Below, piece by piece: positions 4,308-25,562 of a stretch of 64,000 bases of DNA. The notes under the pieces were generated by a model, which was not told the origin of the DNA, did no database searches, and was given only the letters and a program-made list of their open reading frames with translations. The stretch is from assembly GCA_003229305.1 (NCBI GenBank), contig QIDH01000049.1, positions 7,026 to 71,025 of the forward strand, given 5' to 3'. Origin of the DNA: Acidimicrobiia bacterium (GTDB lineage: Bacteria > Actinomycetota > Acidimicrobiia > Spongiisociales > Spongiisociaceae). Numbering within the stretch: the stretch's first letter is position 1; each line of letters begins with the position of its first letter. The position numbers were made by a program, and so were the translations under genes.

Positions 4308-4986
4308 CGGTCGTACTGTCCTCGTCCTCGGCTTCGGCTTCGGCTTCGTCCTCGGCTTCGAGCGGTTCGGATTGGCCAATCTCTGGCGGCCGAGAACCTA
4401 TGCCGGCAGAGGGAGTCCAGGCAGTTTCGCCCTCGTAGGCAGCCCGCCCGCCAGGCGCCGCAGCCCGCATCCAGCCATCCGCCTTCACCAACTCACCCAG
4501 GTCTGCGTATGGGTCATCGGTGAACATGTGGTTAGGAGTCCCGTCAGGGTTGACCAAAAGTTCGGTTTTGGTATAGATCCCGTCCGCCCGATTGGTTGTA
4601 GACATCTCGAACAACTGAGTCATTGTGATCGCCTCGGTCGGACAGGCCTCGACACAAAGAGCGCAAAAGATGCACCGCAGCAAGTTGATTTCGTAGACAA
4701 AACCGTATCGCTCGCCGGGGCTGACCGGCTCGTCTGGGGGGTTGTCGGTTCCCCGAACATAGATGCAATGAGCAGGACAGGCGCCGGCACATAGCTCACA
4801 GCCAATGCATTTTTCCATGCCGTCCGGGTAACGGTTGAGCACATGGCGTCCGTGGAAGCGCTGAGGCTTGACCCGCATCTCGTCCGGATATCGGATCGTG
4901 ACCTCGCCCTTGCCGCCAAAGAATGCCCGGACAAAGTGTCCGAAAGTAACCTTCATGCCGGCCAGAAACGCTGCTACAGGACCCAC
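4300..4986 (-). CDS. nuoI: NADH-quinone oxidoreductase subunit I (2x[4Fe-4S]) with acidic C-terminal extension
   Basis: Two ferredoxin motifs, [12 protein letters not shown] and [12 protein letters not shown]. About 60 extra C-terminal residues ending [19 protein letters not shown]. Confidence 0.93.
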
Positions 4987-15088: not shown

Positions 15089-15172
15089 GGTGCCAGGCTA
15101 GGACGGTTCTGGCACGTCGCCGCCACTACACGACAAACTGACGCCTTCCCCAGCGGATCTAGGCTTGCCGAC

Positions 15173-15832
15173 GTGTCGAACGAAATCCCAAGGGCGACTG
15201 TGGAGCGCCTGCCCCGCTACCTCAAATGCCTCGAACAACTGATTCAGCACAAAAGAACGATCTCGTCGACTGAGCTCGCCCATTTGGCGAATCTGTCACC
15301 CGCCCAGCTGCGCAAGGATCTTTCCCAGCTCGGATCGTACGGAATCAGGGGGGTCGGCTACGACGTGGAACAACTCCAGGGCGAGATCCGCAGGGAGCTA
15401 GGTCTGACGCGAGATTGGCCGGTGATCGTCGTCGGCGTCGGCAACCTGGGGTCAGCTCTCGCTGCGTACGGAGGGTTCGGGAATCGAGGTTTCGAGATCG
15501 CAGGCCTATATGATGTCGACCCTGATCGAATCGGAGACAACATCCAGGGGATCGAGATCAGGTCGCTCGATCGGGTCGGCCGGGACGTTGCCGCCAGGCG
15601 GGTGGCAATAGGAATAATCACGACTCCGGCCGTTGCCGCCCAGTCGACCGCCGACGTCTTGGTGGCAGCGGGGATCTCGTCGATCCTCAACTTCGCCCCC
15701 GCGGTCATCAGCGTGCCATCCCACGTAGAGCTGCGCCAGGTAGACCTCTCGACCGAACTTCAGATCCTGGCGTTCTATCTTCAGTCGCGAAGCGGAGAGT
15801 CCGCGCCAAGGCCGCGCGACGATGAGCCGTAA
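15173..15832 (+). CDS. rex: Redox-sensing transcriptional repressor Rex
   Basis: IPRATVERLPRYLKCLEQL (winged helix) and VVGVGNLGSALAAY (Rossmann). In-frame GTG at 15173 chosen; the track start at 14816 would run antisense through the reductase gene. Confidence 0.9.
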   Translation: MSNEIPRATVERLPRYLKCLEQLIQHKRTISSTELAHLANLSPAQLRKDLSQLGSYGIRGVGYDVEQLQGEIRRELGLTRDWPVIVVGVGNLGSALAAYGGFGNRGFEIAGLYDVDPDRIGDNIQGIEIRSLDRVGRDVAARRVAIGIITTPAVAAQSTADVLVAAGISSILNFAPAVISVPSHVELRQVDLSTELQILAFYLQSRSGESAPRPRDDEP

Positions 15833-15843
15833 GGCGAAGAGCA

Positions 15844-15872
15844 ATAGGCACTGGTCTCAGAGTGGTGCCTAT
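15844..15872. terminator. Hairpin between convergent rex and the respiratory operon (candidate bidirectional terminator)
   Basis: ATAGGCAC (15844-15851) and GTGCCTAT (15865-15872) form a perfect 8-bp stem with a 13-nt loop. No U-tract. Confidence 0.35.
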
Positions 15873-15889: not shown

Positions 15890-16021
15890 CTAGAAGCCGA
15901 CTGTGCGGAGCAGTACCGCCAACGAGGCCAATACGCTCCCGGCGACGACAGCAATCAGAGGGGCCTGGCGCGCAATGAATCGGGGTCTTACCGGCTGCAT
16001 AAGAGCAAACTCGGCTGACAT
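15890..16021 (-). CDS. Possible 43-aa single-TM peptide at the 3' end of the Rieske/b6 operon
   Basis: ATG 16021 gives MSAEFALMQPVRPRFIARQAPLIAVVAGSVLASLAVLLRTVGF, 20 nt downstream of the preceding stop. Basic N-terminus followed by one TM helix. No clear SD. Confidence 0.3.
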   Translation of the reverse strand: MSAEFALMQPVRPRFIARQAPLIAVVAGSVLASLAVLLRTVGF

Positions 16022-16041
16022 GAGCCCAAACTGAGGGTTGG

Positions 16042-16401
16042 TCAGGTCTCGGCGTGTTCTTGGTCGGTCTCGTAGCGGTGGAGCGCCACGAGGAACATCG
16101 TGAAGAGAATCGCGGACGCGATTGCGAAGGCGCCTGGCACGATCCTGATCTCGAACGCGTTGAGTCCGTCGATGTTCACCGGACGTGGCCCTCTGGGGGC
16201 ATACATGACAAAGAGGATCGAGTTGATGGTCATCCATCCAAACGTTCCGGCTCCCACGACCAGGATGCCCAACCGCTTGCCGAGGTTCGTATAGGTGAGT
16301 AGATAGATCGTGCCGTAGAAGGTGAGCACCGCTGCGATCGTGATGACGATGCCGGTGAACAGCAGATTGGCCGAAAGAATCGCCCTGAAGAACTCACGCA
16401 T
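16042..16401 (-). CDS. Small integral membrane protein (3 TM), last clear gene of the Rieske/b6 operon
   Basis: 119 aa, hydrophobic (LFTGIVITIAAVLTFYGTIYLL...). Its start overlaps the cytochrome c stop by 1 nt (TAATG). Confidence 0.7.
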   Translation of the reverse strand: MREFFRAILSANLLFTGIVITIAAVLTFYGTIYLLTYTNLGKRLGILVVGAGTFGWMTINSILFVMYAPRGPRPVNIDGLNAFEIRIVPGAFAIASAILFTMFLVALHRYETDQEHAET

Positions 16402-17855
16402 TAGCCCTCCTCGCTTTCAACGCCAATTCCATCGAGCGTCTGACCCCTCAAGTACTGCACGATGAGCTCGATGTCACGCTGAGACAGCACCGTCCCAAAA
16501 CCTGGCATGCGCCCAGAGCCAACTCCGTTGGCTCCGTATCCAGCGCCGTTTTCCGATCCCTTGATGAGGAACTCGATCATATCGGCTGTGACCAAGAACT
16601 GAGTGTTGGCCCTGCCATCCCGCAACGAAGGTCCCAATCCCCCAGCGGCCGGCTGCTGCTGAAAGGCGATGCCGGCCGAATAGCCGGATGTATGACACCT
16701 GGCGCAATATCCGTTGAACAAACCGATGGCCCTACGGGCATCTTCGAGGTTGCCCCCAAACGTGAGCGCGGCCACCACTGGGAAATCAACGGCCCAGCGC
16801 TTGGCAATGGCGGCCTCTTGGAGGGCGGCCAGGCCGGAATCGGCTTGGGCGCTTATCGAATCTGCGCTGGAAACGATTAGATCGAGCTCTGCGGCCCTTG
16901 ACTCAACCTGCGAGACGAGCGTGCGAGCCGCTCTACCGTCCGAGGTACCGATGCTCGACTCTACGTTGGTCGGATCGAGCGTCGGGGCCTGGTCAATGAG
17001 TTCGGCCGCCACCGCCAGGATGCCGATTTCCGTCAGAGCCTGCTCGGCAGAGTCGCTCAGGCCGTCACCGTCTGTGTCGAGGCCCTGTCCCGCGAGCCGC
17101 AGCTCCCTCGCTGCCTCTTCCGCCAGCCCTTCGGCAATCGGAAGCAGGGTCGGTGCAAAATCGACTGAAGCAATCAGCTCTTCTTGGGCAGAAATCTGGT
17201 TTGCGACCGCCTCGTCCGCGCCGTCGAGGCGGGCGAGAGCTCCGCTGACGTTTCCCTCGATATTGATCAGGGCCTCAGTCTGGGAAAGCTGGAATGTTCC
17301 GAGATAGTTCAGCAAATCGTCAACTTGCTGCTCGTTGAGCGGTCCACCGCCCTCCAGGCCCCAGGCCGGCATCGGTGTGCCCGCCCGACCAAAAACAATC
17401 CAGAACTTCGTTTCATCACGCTCGTACCGGAAAAAGACGTCATTCAGCGAGGGGGCCGCCCATGAGTCGACCTTTACCTGGGAGCGGGGCTCGAGGAACG
17501 ACACGCCACCACCGACGCCCCCTGCCCCGTGACATGCGGCGCATCCAAACTCGTCCCAGACTTCAAGGCCCCGCTCAACTGAGGCCTCGTCGAACTCTTC
17601 AACAAAGCCAAGTTGACGGTCGTTCTCGCCGAGGTAGTAGACCGGGAGGGCCAACGCCAGGAACGCGGAGGAGATGACGGCGGCTATCAGCGCTCGATCG
17701 AGCCGGGTGGTCTCCAGCTCGTCGTCAGTTGCAGCGGCGGACAGATTGGCCGGCACCTCGTCGCGACCGCCGCGGCGAGAGCCGGATCCGACCAGGAAGG
17801 CAAACCAGCCAATCGCGCCGAGGGCGACCAGGGTGATTACAAGACTGTTGAGCAT
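16401..17855 (-). CDS. Membrane-anchored dihaem cytochrome c (QcrC-like) with a roughly 170-190-aa insertion between the haem domains
   Basis: CAACH (aa 105-109, with MPAWG) and CARCH (aa 384-388, with RMPGFG). N-terminal TM helix. The helical insert contains DTDGDG (aa 260-265). Confidence 0.88.
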   Translation of the reverse strand: MLNSLVITLVALGAIGWFAFLVGSGSRRGGRDEVPANLSAAATDDELETTRLDRALIAAVISSAFLALALPVYYLGENDRQLGFVEEFDEASVERGLEVWDEFGCAACHGAGGVGGGVSFLEPRSQVKVDSWAAPSLNDVFFRYERDETKFWIVFGRAGTPMPAWGLEGGGPLNEQQVDDLLNYLGTFQLSQTEALINIEGNVSGALARLDGADEAVANQISAQEELIASVDFAPTLLPIAEGLAEEAARELRLAGQGLDTDGDGLSDSAEQALTEIGILAVAAELIDQAPTLDPTNVESSIGTSDGRAARTLVSQVESRAAELDLIVSSADSISAQADSGLAALQEAAIAKRWAVDFPVVAALTFGGNLEDARRAIGLFNGYCARCHTSGYSAGIAFQQQPAAGGLGPSLRDGRANTQFLVTADMIEFLIKGSENGAGYGANGVGSGRMPGFGTVLSQRDIELIVQYLRGQTLDGIGVESEEG

Positions 17856-17861
17856 CGCCGC

Positions 17862-18749
17862 CTAAACCTCCGGGGCCGCGGAGAGGCTGATACAGGACGG
17901 CCCCAGGGGATATTCGACTGTAAATACAGGCGCCCGAGGAGTCTGGATGATGTTGGCCGTCTTGACGATCATCCTGTCGCCCTGCAACTCGACTTCGAAG
18001 CGGTCGAGGTTGCGAGGCGCAGGGCCGGCTTGATATTCGCCGACCGAATTGTATTTCGATCCGTGACACGGGCACTCAAAACCCTGTGAGGACGCGCACC
18101 ACGGCACCCGACATCCGAGATGAACACACCGCTGCCACAGGGCGGTCAGCTCGCCAACCACCAACGCCTCGCTGAACTGCGAACCGCTGATGTCGGCGTT
18201 GGCGAACGGGACAATGTAGGCGCGGGCCTCGGGCACGAAGGCGGGGATGATGGATCCATCTGGCTGAATTATCTGATTCCGGAGATCGGCGATCGCCCCA
18301 ACGTCGATTGCGGAGCCGAACCCGCCGGACAGGCGGGGCCAAAGGAAGCCGAGGTAGGCCACGCCGTTCAGAGCCAGGAAGGCCCCGAAGGTTGCGCCTA
18401 GTGCCCTGGTAAGGAAGGCTCGTCGATTTACCCCCGCCTCCTCAGGCGACAGCTCTTCGACCTTCAAGACCTCTACGGCATGCACTGCCGCCGGTTCGAC
18501 GACTTCGGGGTCCGGTGCGGATTCGGCGACCACCCCTTCGATCGGTAACTCTGCCGCGCCAGCTCCCGCCATGACCGATACTGGCTCATTCAATTCGGAT
18601 CGATCGGCCTTGGCTGTAGCCCGATCGATGTCTTGCCTCCAATCGGAACTGGGATCGGAACCGCGCTTGAACGCGATAACGAAGGCTCCGAGGACGGCGA
18701 AGACGCCGACCGCCGCGACCCCGACGATGAGAATCTGTGACGTCGTCAT
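17862..18749 (-). CDS. Rieske [2Fe-2S] iron-sulfur subunit (QcrA-like)
   Basis: CVHLGCRVPWC ... CPCHGSKY. Internal twin-arginine-like NRRAFLTRALG before TM2. Start trimmed to ATG 18749 (MTTSQILIV), an ATGA overlap with the upstream stop. Confidence 0.9.
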   Translation of the reverse strand: MTTSQILIVGVAAVGVFAVLGAFVIAFKRGSDPSSDWRQDIDRATAKADRSELNEPVSVMAGAGAAELPIEGVVAESAPDPEVVEPAAVHAVEVLKVEELSPEEAGVNRRAFLTRALGATFGAFLALNGVAYLGFLWPRLSGGFGSAIDVGAIADLRNQIIQPDGSIIPAFVPEARAYIVPFANADISGSQFSEALVVGELTALWQRCVHLGCRVPWCASSQGFECPCHGSKYNSVGEYQAGPAPRNLDRFEVELQGDRMIVKTANIIQTPRAPVFTVEYPLGPSCISLSAAPEV

Positions 18750-19696
18750 CCGAAATCCACCCAATCCTTGAGGTCGTCGAAAAAGATCCCGTCTGCCCAC
18801 GGGTAGGTGAAGTTGAATCCCGGACCGCGGAACAGGGTTCCCAGCATGGTCAGGGTGGCCGATCCGGCAAGGAAGAAGGTGAACAACAAGATCGCAAACT
18901 TACGATCAGACGGCTTCGTTGAGGGGTTGCGATCTATATAGGGAATGGCCATGAATCCGACCAGGCCGGAAATGCCAGGAACTATGACACCGGCAATCTG
19001 GGGGTCGTAGTAGGACAGCAACTCTTGGAGACCGAGAAAGTACCAAGGCGCTTTGGAAGGGTTGGGGGTCGCGTTGAAGTTGGCCAACTCGAGCAAGGGT
19101 GCCTGGAGGATAACGGAGAGGATTATCAGGAAACCTGTCATGACGAGCAGAGCGGTGAACTCGGCAATCATGAGATGGGGCCAGGTATTGACTTTGTCGG
19201 CTGGTGACGACTTGACCTGCTGAATCGCCCTTGCCTTGACGACGGTGAGGAGCCGCTGGGTTCTGACCCCTTCAGGTATTGCCTCCGGCTGGGCTACGGG
19301 GCGTGGAGAAACCGAAGCGGCCAAAGGAGCATCTCCGCCGCTGACAGGGCTCGGAGGGCTCGCGACTTCTGGCGACGCCTCGGCCGGAGCTGCCACCGGA
19401 GCCAGGGATCCTTGCGGAGCCTCCGGTTCCGGGGTTTCCACAGGCCCGACGACCTCTGTTTCGACGACTTTGGTCTCGACAGCTGGAGTTTGCTCGGCCG
19501 TGGCGTCTGGGTCGCCAGGAGCAGGGGCTTCGACAACCGCCGCCGTTTCAGGCGGCGTTGGCGCCTCGGCAGGGGCAGAGGGCGCCGGTGGCGCTTCGCC
19601 CCTCATCTCGGCGAGCACCTGTTCGACCGGCACGCCGAGCGCCTTGGCTCTGGCCTCGGCTGAGCGCTGGAGAAGATGTTCTGGGATGTCAACCAT
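18746..19696 (-). CDS. Cytochrome b C-terminal half (b6f subunit IV-like) with a roughly 150-aa N-terminal extension
   Basis: C-terminal PNPSKAPWYFLGLQELL (PEWY-box variant) plus 3 TM helices. N-terminus MVDIPEHLLQRSAEARAKALGVPVEQVLAEM followed by a Pro/Ala/Glu-rich linker. AAGGAG about 8 nt before the ATG. Confidence 0.85.
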   Translation of the reverse strand: MVDIPEHLLQRSAEARAKALGVPVEQVLAEMRGEAPPAPSAPAEAPTPPETAAVVEAPAPGDPDATAEQTPAVETKVVETEVVGPVETPEPEAPQGSLAPVAAPAEASPEVASPPSPVSGGDAPLAASVSPRPVAQPEAIPEGVRTQRLLTVVKARAIQQVKSSPADKVNTWPHLMIAEFTALLVMTGFLIILSVILQAPLLELANFNATPNPSKAPWYFLGLQELLSYYDPQIAGVIVPGISGLVGFMAIPYIDRNPSTKPSDRKFAILLFTFFLAGSATLTMLGTLFRGPGFNFTYPWADGIFFDDLKDWVDFG

Positions 19697-19710
19697 CGAA
19701 CATTCTCCTT

Positions 19711-20487
19711 CTACAGCGGACCCGATATTCCGCCGTCTTTACGGACCCGCCAGAAATGCACGGCCATGAAGATGACGATGACGAATGGTAAGAAAAGTAC
19801 GTGAAGCACGTAGAAACGCAGCAGAGTGTTGCCGGTGACTTCGATTCCGCCGAGTAAGGCGAACTTCACCCCCGGACCGAAGATTGGCGTGAAACCTCCC
19901 ATGTTCGTCCCGACGGTCACAGCCCACAATGCCAGTTGGTCCCATGGGAGCAGGTAGCCGGTGAAGGAAAGCAGCAACGTGAGGAGCAACAACACCACGC
20001 CAACCACCCAGTTAAATTCACGTGGCGGCTTGTACGCGCCGTGATAGAACACCCGAGACATATGGAGGAACACGGTCAGCACCATCAGGTGTGCGCCCCA
20101 GCGGTGCATGTTGCGCACCAGTGAACCAAACGCAACCGAGGTGGAGAGGGCTTCGACATCGAGGTAAGCCGCCTCTGCCGTTGGCCGGTAGTAGAACATC
20201 AGGAATATTCCGGTGATGGTGAGCAGAATGAAAAGGAAGAAACTGAGCCCACCAAGGCAAAGGGTGTAGGAAAGACGCACCCCGTGACGCTTCACCTTGA
20301 CTGGATGCAGGTGGTACAAGACGCTGTTCATGATCACGTACGACCGGTTCCTGGGGCTGTCCGAATACCCCTTCTTGAGAGGAGAGCCAGGTCGGAACAT
20401 CGATTCCCAAACTGAGCCGCCTCGCACGCGGGTAGCCATCTCCCCGATCCGCTCACCCAATCGCAACCCGCCGTTGCCGTCTGCCAC
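19711..20487 (-). CDS. Cytochrome b6-type subunit (N-terminal, 4-helix, bis-haem half of cytochrome b)
   Basis: [19 protein letters not shown] and [22 protein letters not shown] supply the four haem-b histidines. GTG start preceded by GGAGGA. Confidence 0.9.
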
Positions 20488-20513
20488 TTACCTCTTCCTC
20501 CGTTGCCTGAGAA

Positions 20514-20969
20514 TTACCAGCGCACGCCGTAGGCGTAGCCGTTCTTGAAATCTCGTTGTCCCGTGTCGATCTCCCACGGCACCTTGTCACTCAAACTCGA
20601 CTGCATCGCCACGTCGGACACGGAGCCGGTGAACTTGCCGAGTGTGATGACGTTGGTCGGGCATCTGTCGATGCACAATTGGCACCTGGTGCACTCCGCT
20701 TCGTCGACGACAAAAAACCCTCCGTTGTCTTCGCTGGCACCAGGGTGATCCACGTTGATGGCCTCGTCGATTGCGTCAAGTGAAAGGAAGTGGATGCACT
20801 TCCACGGGCAAATATCGACGCAGCCCTCGCAGATGATGCATTCTGCCTGGTTGATATGGAGAAACTGTTTCGGTTTGACAGTGCTCTGCACATACGAGGG
20901 GTCAACCAATGCCAACTGGTAGTCATCCCGCATCGGAGGCGTTTCAAACCAGACCTCGCTCTTGGCCAT
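20514..20969 (-). CDS. 2x[4Fe-4S] ferredoxin-domain protein encoded within the Rieske/b6 operon
   Basis: CIICEGCVDICP and CTRCQLCIDRCP. 151 aa with no TM helix. 1-nt overlap with the upstream gene. Confidence 0.85.
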   Translation of the reverse strand: MAKSEVWFETPPMRDDYQLALVDPSYVQSTVKPKQFLHINQAECIICEGCVDICPWKCIHFLSLDAIDEAINVDHPGASEDNGGFFVVDEAECTRCQLCIDRCPTNVITLGKFTGSVSDVAMQSSLSDKVPWEIDTGQRDFKNGYAYGVRW

Positions 20970-21886
20970 CAGTCGACCGCCTTGACGAGTGGACGTCCGT
21001 ATGGCGAAAGCGGCGTTTCGGCAGGTGGCTCATCCTCGAGCGGTTTGCCCCAGTCTTGGATCTTCCAGGAAAAGACCATGATCGTGGTCAGAAATCCGAG
21101 GTTGAGGTTGACCGAAATGAAGTCTTTGATCACGCCCCAGCTGATGCTGATGTCGTTGTTCAACATCAACCATTTCCAACCAGTAGCGATCCACCTTGGG
21201 TGGTTCTCACGAGGAAACGCGATGCTCTGCTCCGTCCAAGCCAGTGGACCCTGAGCAAGGTTCAGCCACTCGGACGGGACCGTACCCAACCAAATCACGA
21301 GCTCGAAGAACGCGAGGAAAGCGGCGAAGGCGGCCAATGCCCAGGTCATCTTCCTGCCGAGAATGAGGGCAATGGCCAAACCGCCCACAATCATCTGGGA
21401 CCCGATCAGGGCGACGATGTGACCAACCGTAAACCAGGGGATGCACCACTCCGCTCCTGTCACACCAATGATGGGATTGGTCGAAACGAGGCTGCTGTTG
21501 TTCCCCACCAGACAGCCCCGAGGAACCCATCCGAAATAGTCGACGTCGACTATGACGTCGACAGATATCTCGTCGGATCCGGCTTCGGGTACTGGAGTGA
21601 CTTTGAGGACACGCATCTCGCCATCGCCGACGTCAACCAGATCGCCTGCGACGGACCCAACGACGTCTTCGGTGTTGAGGTTTGCTCTCTCGGTGGCAGG
21701 AAAATTCGAATAGTGGGCGAACCAGATACCGACGACGAGGACCAAGAGGCCACCGAGGACTAGGCGTACGCCGAGCCCCGAACGCTGAGAAGCGTCGAGC
21801 CGGCGGAGCTTGGTCTGCAGCATCGGTTGGGTATTCCCCTCATGTCGCTTGGGTCGCAGTGAAAACGACCCGCCCTTGTTCATCAT
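20969..21886 (-). CDS. Trp-rich polytopic membrane protein of unknown function, first gene of the Rieske/b6 operon
   Basis: 305-aa ORF: N-terminal TM helix, a roughly 100-aa soluble segment, then 4-5 TM helices. No family recognised. The start may be internal (MLQTKLRR at 21823). Confidence 0.65.
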   Translation of the reverse strand: MMNKGGSFSLRPKRHEGNTQPMLQTKLRRLDASQRSGLGVRLVLGGLLVLVVGIWFAHYSNFPATERANLNTEDVVGSVAGDLVDVGDGEMRVLKVTPVPEAGSDEISVDVIVDVDYFGWVPRGCLVGNNSSLVSTNPIIGVTGAEWCIPWFTVGHIVALIGSQMIVGGLAIALILGRKMTWALAAFAAFLAFFELVIWLGTVPSEWLNLAQGPLAWTEQSIAFPRENHPRWIATGWKWLMLNNDISISWGVIKDFISVNLNLGFLTTIMVFSWKIQDWGKPLEDEPPAETPLSPYGRPLVKAVD

Positions 21887-22359
21887 GTCCGGCCGGTGTG
21901 TCAGGCGCCGGACGCATTCGCGAGCTGCGCAGGTGGATCACGACCAAGAGCAGTTTTAGCAGAAACGAGGTGCAGTTCTAAACCCATCGCGGCAATTGCG
22001 ACGATCTCGGGGGCAGGCCCTCGAGATGATTCGGGATGGACGCAGCGACAGACCCGCACTCCTTCGATGGCGCGCCAAAGGTGCGGCCTCTTCGGCCCTC
22101 TGACCACACTGTCCTCGACCGGTCAATTGCCCGCGGTCGAACAGAAGGCAGAGCCAGGACTGGATTCAAGGTCAGACCAACGCCGCTTTGACGACATCAA
22201 CCCTGAAGGCGAAACTGCACCAGGCCACGCCGGGTCGCGAGATGGGTCCTGGCCTCGTGAGGACACATCTTCGGATCCGATCGACGAATCCGGTAGCCTC
22301 GGAGCCGCCGGTCGGTTGGGCCGAGTATTCAGAACCATCAGGAAAGAGGAGCCAACGCC

Positions 22360-23784
22360 TTGGCGGCAGCCAACAGCGGACGCAATGTATTGACCGGAGT
22401 CCTTTCGACAAACGCGGATTCAGCGGCCAGAAGGGCCATGCTGGCCTCGTTGGTTTTCGCCGTGATCGGAGCGGCAGCAACGGTTCTCATGCTCATCAAG
22501 GTGTCCGTCCCTGGACTCTTCGACACTGCCTCGATCGCCGGGTACGGGCGCATGCGGGCGATCGCGCTCAATTCTTTTGTCTACGGGTTCGGCGGCCTGG
22601 CGTCGACCGGTCTCGCCTACTACATGACCCCTCGCTTGGCCGGAGCTGCCCTGGCAAGACAACGGCTGGCCAATCTCGGGGCAGCCGGCCACACGTTCGT
22701 CGTCACGATCGGGCTGGCTTCGATTGCGTTGGGAATCACAGATCCCCTCGAGCTCGCCGAGTTCCCGCTGCTAGTCGATTTGGGTCTCTTCTCATCGATG
22801 GTGATCCCGGCTCTCATCGTGACTGCCACGGTCAGGGCCCGCACAGAGCGAACGATCTATGTGTCGCTCTGGTACGTACTGGCCGGCGTGTGGTGGCTGC
22901 CGGCGTTGTATTTTGTCGGAAACGTTCCCGGCACAACCGGACTCGGAACACAACTACAGAGCTCATTCATGGTTGGCGGTCTGATCGGTGCGTGGCTGCC
23001 CATGGTTGGCATCGGGGCCGCGTACTACGTAATCCCTCGCGCCACCGATCGTGCTCTGTTCTCCCGCCCGCTAGCCCAGGCGGGGTTTTGGAGTCTCGCA
23101 GGAACCGGCCTCTTCGCGTCTGTCACACGGTACGGGAGTGGCGCGGCACCCGACTGGTTGGAGACGACCGGAACCGTGTTTTCGCTTGGGCTGATCGTCG
23201 CGGCCGTTGCCACACTTGCCAACCTCGCTGGCACTGCCAACGGCGCGTATGGAGAAATCCGGGAATCGACCCCACTCCGCATGATTGGAGGCGGACTGGT
23301 CGTATACGTGGCGATCGCCGCCCTTCTCTCGGTACAGGGCTTCCGGTCCATCGATGCGGTCGTCGGCCTCACAAGCTGGTACGAAGGTTTGATTCTGGCA
23401 ACGGTGCTGGCCGCTGCCCCTCTGCTGTTGATCGGCGCGATGGCCTACGCCCTTCCCCAAATTGCAGGGCGACGCCTCGTCGACGGCCTGGCCAAACGCG
23501 GCATCAGCGCAACGCTCTGGGGTGGGTCCGTCACCGGCCTACTACTCGTGATCTCTGGGCTCGTGACCGGGCTCGGATGGAACACAGGAGCAGTTCCGAA
23601 TTCTGGCGAAGAGTACGTGCGCACGACCGGGCTGATCGACACCTACCAACTGCTGGCGATCCTCAGCGCCCTCGTGGCAGCCGCCGGCATTGCCATGTTG
23701 ACCCTGGTGATCCTCCGCACATACACGTCAGGCGAAGCGATCGCCTCAGAGGTCCTCGTCTGGGTAGGTGAAGACGATGAGTGA
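22360..23784 (+). CDS. Haem-copper oxidase subunit I (CcoN)-like membrane protein lacking all metal-ligand histidines
   Basis: 474 aa, about 12 TM helices. TTG start 8 nt after GGAAAGAGGAG. CcoN-like blocks [33 protein letters not shown]...FWSL and APDWLE. The whole protein has only one His (GAAGHTF). Confidence 0.8.
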   Translation: [474 protein letters not shown]

Positions 23785-24580
23785 GCTCCTCGCCACAGCC
23801 GCAACCGCAATGGGCACCCCCCAAGATCTGGTCGAACGATCAGCAAGGGCAAGGGCGGCAGCCCAAGGAACCACGTATGAAGGTGTCATTTCTGCCTGGG
23901 CGGGTGGCCAATCGTCGGCTGCGGCGGCCGATCCAAGCCAGGCCCCTGCCGCCGATCCCCAGCCAGAACCGGACCCGAAACCTGAGTCGAATCCAGAACC
24001 AGTCGCCGAGCCAGTCACCCAATCCGAACCGCCGCTTTCTGCACAGGCTCAGGTGACCGCCGTCGCGGTCATTGATCTACCGACAGGTGCACCACTTCTG
24101 GAGGGAAAACACGAGAGCTTCGCCGGGCTGTTGACAGGCATCCTCGCCTTGTTGGCCGCCGCGATCCTGTTGGTCGTGGTAATACCGGCCAACAGCCAGG
24201 GCGACGATCGGCACATCGTCGGAGACGCCAGCCTCAGCGCGCTGGAGGACACGGGTCGGGACGTCTACCTCCAGCAAGGATGCCAGTACTGCCACACACA
24301 GAATGTGCGCCCTGTCGTGGCGGACGTTGGCCTTGGGGCCATAACCGAGACGGGAGCCCGTTCGTTGGCCGATCCTGCCACATTTGGCTTCCAACGCATC
24401 GGCCCTGACCTGGCCCGCGTAGCCGGCCGATTGCCTGAGGACCTAGACGCCGCCGAATATGTTCGTGAGTTCCTTACACATCCGACCGAGGTCGTGGAAG
24501 GTTCAGCACAGCCGCCGTATGCGCACCTGTCGGACGACGACATGGCCGCCCTGGTCGCATATGTTCTGGCGTTGAGATGA
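23777..24580 (+). CDS. CcoO (cbb3 subunit II)-like monohaem cytochrome c with N-terminal cytoplasmic module
   Basis: GRDVYLQQGCQYCHTQNVRP, FQRIGPDLARVAGR and HPTEVVEGSAQPPYAHL align with CcoO. One TM helix. N-terminus MSELLATAATAMGTPQDLVERSARARAAAQG followed by a Pro/Ala linker. Confidence 0.85.
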   Translation: MSELLATAATAMGTPQDLVERSARARAAAQGTTYEGVISAWAGGQSSAAAADPSQAPAADPQPEPDPKPESNPEPVAEPVTQSEPPLSAQAQVTAVAVIDLPTGAPLLEGKHESFAGLLTGILALLAAAILLVVVIPANSQGDDRHIVGDASLSALEDTGRDVYLQQGCQYCHTQNVRPVVADVGLGAITETGARSLADPATFGFQRIGPDLARVAGRLPEDLDAAEYVREFLTHPTEVVEGSAQPPYAHLSDDDMAALVAYVLALR

Positions 24581-24590
24581 CGGAGTGACG

Positions 24591-25562
24591 ATGACTGAAC
24601 AACTCTCAGCGGCAGCGGCCGCTATGGGCACTCCTGAAGAACTGGTCGAACGGGCAGCAAGGGCCAGAGCAAACGCCAAGGGCAACAGCTACGAGGAAGT
24701 CATCGCCGCTTGGGCCGGCGAAGCCCCAACCCCAACTGCCGCAGTCGAAGACACTCCATCTGCTCCAGAGCCTGCGCCAGCAGAAGAGGTCGAGACCCCG
24801 ATCGATACTTCGAGTGGGGAGTCTGACCCCGTGACTCAAGCACTCGCCACGTCCCCGGCCGTCAGTGCAGTGACGGCTCCTTCCATCCCCGAGACGGTTT
24901 CGGTCCGCGAGGCGGCCAGGTACGCAGAGGTCACGACAGTGTCGACTGTCGGCATCAAGGAAAGAACTAGAACAAAGACGCCCGGCTGGCTCACCGGACT
25001 CTTCGTGATGCTTCCGGTTGCGGCCATCGTCTATTTCATTTCGTTTCCGGGGGGCCCGAACTGCGGTGTCGGCGGCCAGCTTTCGGTTGATCGCCAGACC
25101 GGATCAGCCGTCAACTGCGACGGGAGCGAGTATCAGGCAGGCGGGGCAATCGGCGGTGTAGACGCCAGGGCGGTGGTGGCCAGCGGCGGTCTGGTCTACT
25201 CGCAGAGCTGCGCCTCGTGTCACGGTGCAAACGGCGGTGGGGGCACCGGACCTCAGCTGGCCGGAGGAGCCGTAACGGCCACCTTCGCCGGATGTGGTGA
25301 CCACCTTGAGTGGGTCAATCTCGGCTCCAGAGGTTTCCAGAACGCAGGCCGCAGCACGTACGGAGATTCGGACAAACCGATCAGTGGTGTCATGCCAGGC
25401 TTCGCTGGCACCCTTTCCCCCGCTGACCTATCGGCCGTCGTCTTCTTCGAACGAGTCAACTTCGGTGGACAAGACGCAGAAGAGGCCCTCGTCGACTGCG
25501 GTTTTGTGACCGAGGATGGCGAAGGCGCTCCGGACGGTGAAGACGTCGAGGCGATGGGCTGA
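24591..25562 (+). CDS. Membrane-anchored monohaem class I cytochrome c with the same N-terminal module
   Basis: CASCHGANGGG and VMPGFAG. TM helix WLTGLFVMLPVAAIVYFISF. N-terminus MTEQLSAAAAAMGTPEELVERAARARANAKG. GGAG 7 nt before ATG 24591 (the track start at 24585 is a GTG). Confidence 0.88.
   Translation: MTEQLSAAAAAMGTPEELVERAARARANAKGNSYEEVIAAWAGEAPTPTAAVEDTPSAPEPAPAEEVETPIDTSSGESDPVTQALATSPAVSAVTAPSIPETVSVREAARYAEVTTVSTVGIKERTRTKTPGWLTGLFVMLPVAAIVYFISFPGGPNCGVGGQLSVDRQTGSAVNCDGSEYQAGGAIGGVDARAVVASGGLVYSQSCASCHGANGGGGTGPQLAGGAVTATFAGCGDHLEWVNLGSRGFQNAGRSTYGDSDKPISGVMPGFAGTLSPADLSAVVFFERVNFGGQDAEEALVDCGFVTEDGEGAPDGEDVEAMG

Follow-up and report, generated by a model that had tools for sequence, protein, structure and literature searches.

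Why should the operon of a Rieske/cytochrome b complex carry a ferredoxin gene, and do the ferredoxin and the membrane protein encoded beside it belong to the complex? The question is raised by a minus-strand operon in the window, that is, the whole stretch of 64,000 nt analyzed here from contig QIDH01000049.1 of an Acidimicrobiia bacterium (assembly GCA_003229305.1), to whose positions the coordinates refer. Its genes encode, in this order, a Trp-rich membrane protein (subunit X), a dicluster ferredoxin (Fd), cytochrome b6, subunit IV (SUIV), a Rieske protein, a dihaem cytochrome c and a 119-aa membrane protein (Table 1). That these seven genes form one conserved, translationally coupled operon for a complex III is hardly in doubt. 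Rieske/cytochrome b complexes are among the most thoroughly studied energy-converting enzymes, and the role of haem cn and a possible exchange of electrons with ferredoxin-level carriers on the n-side of b6-type complexes are current questions about them. In the present family, the operon that encodes the only complex III of many aerobic bacteria includes genes for a dedicated iron–sulfur (FeS) protein and a new membrane subunit, and Fd may connect the n-side haems of that complex with the cytoplasm.

Gene Organization and Identity of the Complex

The original prediction had described seven minus-strand genes in a single translationally coupled unit, with a possible eighth. The list of open reading frames (ORFs) and the family searches confirmed the seven as real ORFs at their positions, and the coupling was borne out by overlaps of 1–4 nt or gaps carrying a Shine–Dalgarno (SD) sequence at all junctions. 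X and Fd overlapped by 1 nt, SUIV and Rieske by 4 nt (ATGA), and cytochrome c and the 119-aa protein by 1 nt with GAGGAGGG. The three gapped junctions spanned 6–26 nt, each with an SD sequence of the GGAGG type: 26 nt carrying GGAGGAAGAGG between Fd and b6, 14 nt carrying GAAGGAGAA between b6 and SUIV, and 6 nt carrying GGAGG between Rieske and cytochrome c. The true Rieske start was the ATGA overlap at 18749 and not 18800, and the 4-nt overlap start was also present in relatives. For X, which contains 14 Trp, the likely true start at 21823 gives 284 aa, matching the length of the closest homologues. The possible eighth gene, a 43-aa ORF on the minus strand (15890..16021), was rejected, as it had no SD sequence and no homologue in any of 56 orthologous loci; the region is probably part of the 3′ untranslated region.

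By its motifs and family matches, the operon is assigned to the menaquinol:cytochrome c oxidoreductases of the split b6/SUIV type, in the APWY clade (subfamily G). In cytochrome b6, His128, His142, His229 and His244 were invariant in 95 sequences, with spacings of 14 and 15 residues. The haem-cn motif C77-L-G-G was located at 20248–20259, and CxGG was invariant in the 95 b6 sequences of type 1, the Fd-linked type. Beyond the four canonical ligands, the segment Y-H59-L-H61-PVKVKR-H68 (20284–20316) contained three further His, all invariant in the 95 sequences. Moreover, the cytoplasmic N-terminal segment as a whole was near-invariant in the type-1 sequences (RPGS...D.PRNR...MNNVLY-H59-L-H61-PVKVKR-H68...Y-T-x-C77-L-G-G) and carried a net charge of +6 to +8. 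The b6 scored 302.9 against the NCBIfam ExtP model (cut-off 290). Its closest relatives in the PDB were the b6 subunits of b6f complexes (E 7e-47), and the structure search found no member of this complex family there.

The predicted SUIV-like protein with an N-terminal extension and an APWY box was recovered as such: Cytochrom_B_C covered residues 205–289, the APWY Qo motif was found at residues 216–219 (19040–19051), and the lineage-specific extension comprised about 170 aa. The Rieske protein possessed the boxes CVHLGC and CPCHGSKY, an RRAFL anchor resembling a twin-arginine translocation signal, and an extra N-terminal transmembrane (TM) helix. Ser and Tyr in the Rieske box, as in CPCHGSKY, are associated with a high potential, and the present Ser/Tyr-type centre is probably a high-potential one. 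In agreement with the prediction of a dihaem cytochrome c with a helical insert, CAACH and CARCH flanked an insert of about 180 aa with a TSP3-like DTDGDG motif, to which TSP3_bac matched weakly. This insert was missing outside the order, where tblastn matches broke at about residues 190 and 370.

Conservation and Distribution

The prediction had proposed that Fd and the 305-aa membrane protein be examined for co-occurrence with the b6/Rieske genes, and the two proved to be co-conserved with them in 80 species genomes and in 19 loci of other families. Three distant X homologues (35–48% identity) stood in the same seven-gene order, together with a divergent operon for CcoN-like, FixO-like and cytochrome c proteins, and rex and nuo often adjoined. 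Fd homologues (E ≤ 1e-10) were present in 157 of 401 genomes spread over Actinomycetota. In 19 Fd loci taken from different families of the phylum, Fd was directly upstream of b6 in each, and SUIV, Rieske and cytochrome c followed wherever the contig continued. The b6 proteins of these loci were 67–76% identical to that of the window, with 83% in the sole locus from the same order.

A profile scan across GTDB gave at least 583 confirmed Fd loci, and the neighborhoods were counted in the best 80 (80 species-level genomes). These were all from Acidimicrobiia, including Ca. Actinomarina and Spongiisociaceae, and each count was limited to loci with enough flanking sequence. X was beside Fd in 73 of 75 loci and b6 in 72 of 73. 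SUIV (65/67), Rieske (64/65), cytochrome c (57/58) and the 119-aa protein (54/56) were found in nearly every locus, as was the divergent CcoN-like gene (54/57); rex was adjacent in 33 of 54. The 119-aa protein had weaker matches in other classes. The best 80 of the at least 583 loci and all labelled representatives belonged to Actinomycetota. Cultured carriers of Fd were Ilumatobacter coccineus, IMCC26256, Euzebya pacifica, Egicoccus halophilus and Nitriliruptor alkaliphilus. Cultivable carriers such as Ilumatobacter, Euzebya and Nitriliruptor make the n-side question testable without photosynthesis or anammox physiology.

Role in the Respiratory Chain

Of 21 near-complete Acidimicrobiia genomes with Fd, 14 had no Cytochrome_B match other than the type-1 b6, Ilumatobacter and IMCC26256 among them; the same held for three genomes outside Acidimicrobiia. 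Two Acidimicrobiia without Fd had a long QcrB only. Furthermore, an A-type (aa3-type) haem-copper oxidase was present in 17 of the 17 genomes checked. Since it supplies the sole cytochrome b in 14 of the 21 genomes, and an aa3-type oxidase was present wherever this was checked, the cassette represents the main complex III, and not an accessory one, both in Acidimicrobiia and in several further lineages that branch deeply within Actinomycetota. The arrangement had been called atypical for Actinobacteria; this was right with respect to the class Actinomycetes and wrong for Acidimicrobiia, where it is the norm. The family defines the respiratory chain of ecologically abundant marine and soil Actinomycetota.

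The assembly of the window (72% complete) contained three cytochrome b loci. Besides the type-1 operon, the canonical qcrCAB that was sought in the same genome was present on a separate contig as qcrC-A-B (L005:5760-8819, contig C26), with a QcrB of 562 aa ending in a cytochrome c domain. Two large c-type cytochromes were encoded just upstream of it, one of which (L005, 2894–4084) had a long poly-Asp/Gly tail. The third locus was an operon of a second type (type 2; L004:5214-9349, contig C5) for a GltD-like flavoprotein, b6, SUIV, Rieske and a monohaem cytochrome c. The GltD-like protein (600 aa; Pyr_redox_2, Fer4_20 and Fer4) combined NAD(P)/FAD domains with a C-terminal 2x[4Fe-4S] domain. 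The type-2 architecture was also shown by each of six other loci (L112-L117, Actinomycetota) that hold a second b6 in relatives.

In the b6 tree, type 1 and type 2 formed sister clades (support 87/55 and 91/82), and the branching of type 1 broadly tracked taxonomy. The type-2 b6 had no CxGG cysteine and kept only the first of the three extra His, in FLH(I/V)YPVK. The type-2 operons were also without X and the 119-aa protein, which were restricted to the Cys-bearing, Fd-type operons.

Properties of the Ferredoxin and Subunit X

As predicted, a soluble 2x[4Fe-4S] ferredoxin was encoded in the operon, with matches to Pfam Fer4 families and two CxxCxxCxxxCP motifs. The Cys motifs and a CPW-x-C signature were invariant in the family. 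Fd had no signal peptide and no TM segment, and its net charge was about −10 across the family. It was the second most conserved protein of the operon, after b6 and above Rieske and cytochrome c, and its N- and C-terminal extensions, which are outside the ferredoxin core, were conserved as well. The two-cluster core, including the insert between the clusters, could be aligned to the FeS domain at the C-terminus of the GltD-like protein from the paralogous operon (31% identity, E 3e-13). In addition, when the Fd profile was run against 1.84 billion representatives, the true family was followed directly in the ranking by the C-termini of proteins of about 600 aa and by polyferredoxin modules.

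A divergent full-length Fd homologue (P0257) at L110:672-2784 was followed by a 511-aa protein without a Pfam match and not by b6; this was the sole exception to Fd–b6 adjacency among the loci examined.

An identification of Fd as NuoI was rejected (38.3 bits against the TIGR01971 cut-off of 113); the genuine NuoI was encoded at 4558–4911 in the nuo operon (131.6 bits). Some records of cultured carriers label Fd as '4Fe-4S binding protein'. In other public records (Egicoccus halophilus, Nitriliruptor alkaliphilus and many metagenome-assembled genomes), homologues of Fd are labelled 'NADH-quinone oxidoreductase subunit I', 'PreA subunit' or 'formate hydrogenlyase subunit 6'. Both the scores and the gene context show such labels to be misannotations, and hundreds of database records with wrong labels for Fd homologues ('NuoI', 'PreA', 'formate hydrogenlyase subunit 6') need correction.

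X had been regarded as an orphan, a view that did not hold. In every sampled locus, a gene for a membrane protein of 115–190 aa with 2–3 TM helices ended just upstream of Fd, and an all-vs-all phmmer comparison joined these proteins and X into one family. Its members shared TW..A, (I/V)PS.W and RD motifs and usually a basic C-terminal tail ending in GGY[KR] or YGRPLV; the tail of the window protein was SPYGRPLV. The window protein exceeded the short forms by one TM helix at the N-terminus and by a beta-rich insert (about 90 aa) that should face the p-side. On these sequence features, X is best described as an enlarged form of a small membrane subunit common to these operons. There were 181 X homologues, and those with labels were all from Acidimicrobiia. 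The confident AlphaFold2 model of X (predicted local distance difference test (pLDDT) 85, predicted template modelling score 0.75) comprised four TM helices and the insert. With Foldseek, no similar fold was detected for it in the PDB (best E 0.56). PF23600 (CdpA_N), which matched one homologue weakly and was absent on the window protein, was dropped. In 84 of 101 loci, Fd started between −8 and +5 nt from the stop codon of X, and such tight spacing suggests coupled, stoichiometric synthesis.

Proposed Electron Route and Alternative Explanations

In the route proposed here, menaquinol would be oxidized at the APWY Qo site, and the first electron would pass to the Rieske centre and then, through the membrane-anchored dihaem cytochrome c, to the aa3-type oxidase, as in a forward Q-cycle. 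In the order of the window, this branch may run via c-type cytochromes scaffolded by a CcoN-like protein without cofactors. The second electron would cross the membrane through haems bL and bH to a haem cn that is predicted to be covalently bound at Cys77. The acidic Fd would dock on the basic cytoplasmic face of b6, held there by X, whose gene is translationally coupled to that of Fd. Fd would then serve as an FeS wire between the n-side haems (cn/bH) and the cytoplasm, possibly via an extra haem ligated by the invariant His59. The wire could work in either direction: as an input from a low-potential donor to the quinone-reduction site, as an output driven by bifurcation at the Qo site, or as an electron buffer.

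An n-side FeS link, as suggested in the original prediction, is a reasonable reading of these sequences, and the ferredoxin-linked or cyclic route also suggested there is a possible one. As a whole the proposal appears to be the best explanation, with a probability of about 0.5. It seems about as likely as not that Fd and X physically belong to the complex, and a working electron port on the n-side is suggested more tentatively.

Several points weigh against the proposal. Fd has the small size, solubility and acidity expected of a free carrier. The positive-inside rule by itself would make n-side loops basic. The AlphaFold2 model of isolated Fd was poor (pLDDT 47), with disordered extensions. 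The conservation reflects one ancestral operon inherited vertically within one phylum, as seen in the b6 tree, and not many independent associations. 'Rosetta-stone' proteins from the search of representatives, in which X was fused to Fd or Fd to b6, were discarded, their segments being garbled in the way typical of frameshifted long-read assemblies. Finally, the idea of an extra haem comes from the computational model of another group (PMC12954380).

The most far-reaching form of the proposal is a three-port complex III, in which a permanently bound 2x[4Fe-4S] subunit would be wired to the b-haems via haem cn and perhaps also via a further haem, ligated by His and located on the dimer axis. 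This form is quite unlikely. If it were true, electrons would be driven to a cytoplasmic acceptor at the ferredoxin level by bifurcation of menaquinol at the Qo site, the pull being provided by O2 and a Rieske centre of high potential. Conversely, reduced cytoplasmic donors could feed the quinone-reduction site, a respiratory counterpart of the debated ferredoxin:plastoquinone route through b6f. It would apply to the main complex III across a large part of Actinomycetota, from Ca. Actinomarina, which is abundant in the sea, to soil lineages that have not been cultured.

The most credible alternative, and still an unlikely one, is that Fd is a freely diffusing ferredoxin, merely co-expressed and possibly serving or regulating another redox enzyme, and that the complex is an ordinary b6c-type reductase. 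The small size, solubility and acidity of Fd, its lack of a TM segment and the poor model of the isolated protein would all agree with this, as would the homologue at L110, which precedes an unrelated 511-aa protein. Against it, Fd stands between the membrane gene and b6 near-universally, with tight start–stop coupling to X in 84 of 101 loci, it is better conserved than Rieske and cytochrome c, and its extensions beyond the ferredoxin core are kept. Moreover, in operons of the sister type, the n-side subunit contains the homologous domain within its own polypeptide chain.

A distinctly improbable explanation gives X and the 119-aa protein, and perhaps Fd as well, a role in biogenesis, for example, in the covalent attachment of haem cn on the n-side, and not as subunits of the mature complex. 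In its favor, X and the 119-aa protein occur only alongside a CxGG-bearing b6 and are missing from the Cys-less type-2 operons, X is without a known fold, and PMC5600118 notes that no haem-cn insertion system is known for lineages other than cyanobacteria. Yet the same pattern is explained if X anchors a free-standing Fd, since the type-2 operons have no such Fd. X has no haem-handling motifs such as WWD or conserved His, and its sole invariant His37 (in the 284-aa form) is in the N-terminal part that the short forms lack. A relationship of the 119-aa protein to CcmF/NrfE was rejected, the match being insignificant (E 0.005, far under the cut-off). The tight translational coupling also suggests stoichiometric production.

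It is very improbable that the complex runs mainly in reverse, from cytochrome c to the quinone pool, as Kao and Hunte proposed for the APWY type (PMC4122944): the APWY Qo motif is present, but the b6 is the sole cytochrome b in many near-complete genomes of aerobic heterotrophs, including Ilumatobacter, with aa3-type oxidases in all those checked, so that a forward complex III is needed, and, furthermore, the full cluster is kept in Ca. Actinomarina genomes and nuo and rex beside the cassette provide a respiratory context.

Neighboring Genes and Intergenic Elements

Upstream of X, a divergent operon encodes a CcoN-like protein, a CcoO-like monohaem cytochrome c and a 325-aa monohaem cytochrome c (Table 1). 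The CcoN-like protein (22360–23784; COX1, 105 bits) contained one His in 474 aa and therefore cannot ligate haems or CuB. The haem motif was CQYCH in the CcoO-like protein and CASCH in the 325-aa cytochrome c. The first 45 or so residues of SUIV (19556–19696) recurred at the N-termini of the CcoO-like protein (23768–23900) and the 325-aa cytochrome c (24585–24720), as seen in tblastn cross-hits of SUIV residues 2–47 with 42–58% identity (loci L006 and L007). The module thus shared by subunits of the two divergent operons is cytoplasmic by prediction. The SUIV extension, the dihaem cytochrome c insert of about 180 aa, the enlarged X and the divergent CcoN-like operon were specific to the order, that is, full-length matches were found only in the window, L006-L008, L022 and L029 onward. 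These features suggest a supercomplex-like association.

In other Acidimicrobiia families (G105, G186, G390, G062 and G302), a CcoN-like gene with a weak COX1 match was located about 4–5 kb from an aa3-type ctaD and not beside the b6 operon, so the genomic partner of this gene varies between lineages.

Table 1. Positions of the operon genes and of the adjoining features in the window.
Feature	Position	Strand	Basis
Subunit X, Trp-rich membrane protein	20969..21886	-	ORF list; no family match
Fd, 2x[4Fe-4S] dicluster ferredoxin, 151 aa	20514..20969	-	Pfam Fer4_21, Fer4 and related families
Cytochrome b6, 258 aa	19711..20487	-	Pfam Cytochrome_B, E 4e-47
SUIV, 316 aa	18746..19696	-	Pfam Cytochrom_B_C, residues 205-289; NCBIfam ExtQ, E 5e-14
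Rieske [2Fe-2S] protein, 295 aa with the start in the ATGA overlap	17862..18749	-	Pfam Rieske
Dihaem cytochrome c, membrane-anchored, 484 aa	16401..17855	-	Pfam Cytochrom_C 93-187 and Cytochrome_CBB3 373-469
119-aa membrane protein, 3 TM helices, final gene of the operon	16042..16401	-	ORF list; no family match
Hairpin ATAGGCAC-N13-GTGCCTAT, perfect 8-bp inverted repeat	15844..15872	.	Read from the sequence
rex, redox-sensing repressor, convergent; start approximate	15143..15832	+	Pfam Put_DNA-bind_N and CoA_binding
Divergent intergenic region between the X and CcoN-like operons, 473 bp	21887..22359	.	No sigma-70-like or Rex-operator-like site
Divergent operon: CcoN-like protein, CcoO-like monohaem c, 325-aa monohaem c	22360..25562	+	Pfam COX1, FixO, Cytochrome_CBB3

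The promoters of both operons are presumably in the 473-bp intergenic region; a promoter scan of this region returned no sigma-70-like site. An inverted repeat, GTCCGGCC GGTGTGTCAG GCGCCGGAC, was found at 21887–21913, about 65–90 nt upstream of the probable X start, and could be an operator or a hairpin of the 5′ untranslated region. The hairpin at the other end of the operon began 11 nt past the rex stop, between the convergent rex and the operon end. It was not called by the consensus terminator scan and is a possible shared bidirectional terminator, as read from its sequence.

The rex gene was also adjacent to the operon in several loci of other classes. The Rex operator TGTGAA-N6-TTCACA, with three mismatches or fewer, had fewer matches in the window than expected by chance and none in the promoter region, and when 70 orthologous intergenic regions were scanned with relaxed settings, a single one had a site. 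Control of the operon by Rex is not claimed despite the conserved adjacency, as the operator scans were near-empty.

Comparison with Known Systems

The bcc complexes of Mycobacterium and Corynebacterium (QcrCAB) are from the same phylum and are similar to the present system in their dihaem cytochrome c and, probably, in delivery to aa3 without a soluble cytochrome c. However, they have an unsplit QcrB, no haem cn, no Fd and no X. Accordingly, the b6 of the window reached 105.9 bits against the NF050120 cut-off of 500, and its Rieske protein reached 22.1 bits against the QcrA cut-off of 275.

The b6c complexes of Firmicutes and heliobacteria (Bacillus QcrABC, Heliobacterium PetABCD) are also non-photosynthetic, menaquinol-oxidizing b6-type enzymes with a c-type cytochrome replacing cytochrome f, and they have haem ci, the counterpart of which is predicted here. 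According to the literature (PMC4122944), they differ in a fusion of SUIV with cytochrome c (Bacillus), in a PDWY or PEWY Qo motif and in having no ferredoxin or X gene.

The b6f complexes of cyanobacteria and chloroplasts share the split b6/SUIV, the CxGG cysteine and the Rieske box CPCHGS-x-Y, and they are the nearest solved structures. Haem cn has long been proposed as the entry point of ferredoxin electrons in cyclic electron flow through b6f (PMC5600118). Cytochrome f and PetG/L/M/N have no counterpart in the operon of the window, which encodes a class-I dihaem cytochrome c and contains no genes for small Pet subunits. The window b6 scored 212.5 bits with the NCBIfam cytochrome b6 model (cut-off 325), the Qo motif is APWY instead of PEWY, and b6 possesses an N-terminal extension of about 45 residues with the three invariant His. 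The operon, moreover, has its own Fd gene and X.

In Kuenenia stuttgartiensis, the anammox complexes Kuste4569-4574 and Kustd1480-1485 (Kartal 2013; de Almeida 2016; Hauser 2025, PMC12954380) resemble the present one in a b6-type core with haem cn, which is predicted here, a Rieske protein of the Ser/Tyr type and a conserved N-terminal His of b6, which is modelled there as a ligand of the extra haem. AlphaFold3 models locate the Kuenenia reductase at the n-side behind a further b haem, for which the N-terminal His of each b6 serves as a ligand, and the Rieske centres titrate above +300 mV (PMC12954380). A passage of PMC5600118, citing de Almeida 2016, describes the large FeS subunit as part of the expressed complexes. 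The dicluster domain of the anammox n-side subunit is homologous to Fd, as shown via the actinobacterial GltD-like paralogue. However, that subunit has an NAD(P)/FAD domain, while the window operon has none and encodes the 151-aa dicluster Fd only. The cytochrome is dihaem instead of hexa- or octahaem, SUIV has three TM helices instead of five, X and the 119-aa protein are added, and the hosts are aerobic heterotrophs. A true anammox-like architecture was found separately in the genome of the window, as the type-2 operon (L004).

The closest known group is the clade of split b6 catalogued as the APWY clade (Kao & Hunte 2014, PMC4122944) or subfamily G (Dibrova et al. 2013/2017, PMC5600118), which includes Geobacter ExtO/P/Q and has in common with the present operon the split b6 and SUIV, APWY and CxGG. 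Kao and Hunte listed the split cytochrome b of Ilumatobacter, and no member of the clade had been characterized at that time (PMC4122944). The locus of Ilumatobacter coccineus was syntenic with that of the window (75.6% b6 identity), the likeness being one of motifs, ExtP score and synteny. Subfamily G co-occurs with large NAD(P)/FeS proteins (PMC5600118). The CxGG form is (L/Y/F)CLGG here and WCMGG typically in the clade, and reverse operation was proposed for the clade, whereas the present complex is often the sole complex III of aerobes.

Whether this architecture had already been described as a clade can be answered in part: the split b6 was catalogued phylogenetically (PMC4122944, PMC5600118), and full-text searches of the literature found no paper on the stand-alone Fd, the X family, the 119-aa protein or the cassette as sole complex III of aerobic Actinomycetota. 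The literature on the clade covers the phylogeny of cytochrome b and Rieske only, to which the operon adds these three proteins. The core of b6, SUIV and Rieske is thus already known as a catalogued clade, and what appears to be new here is the presence of Fd, X and the 119-aa protein within its operon.

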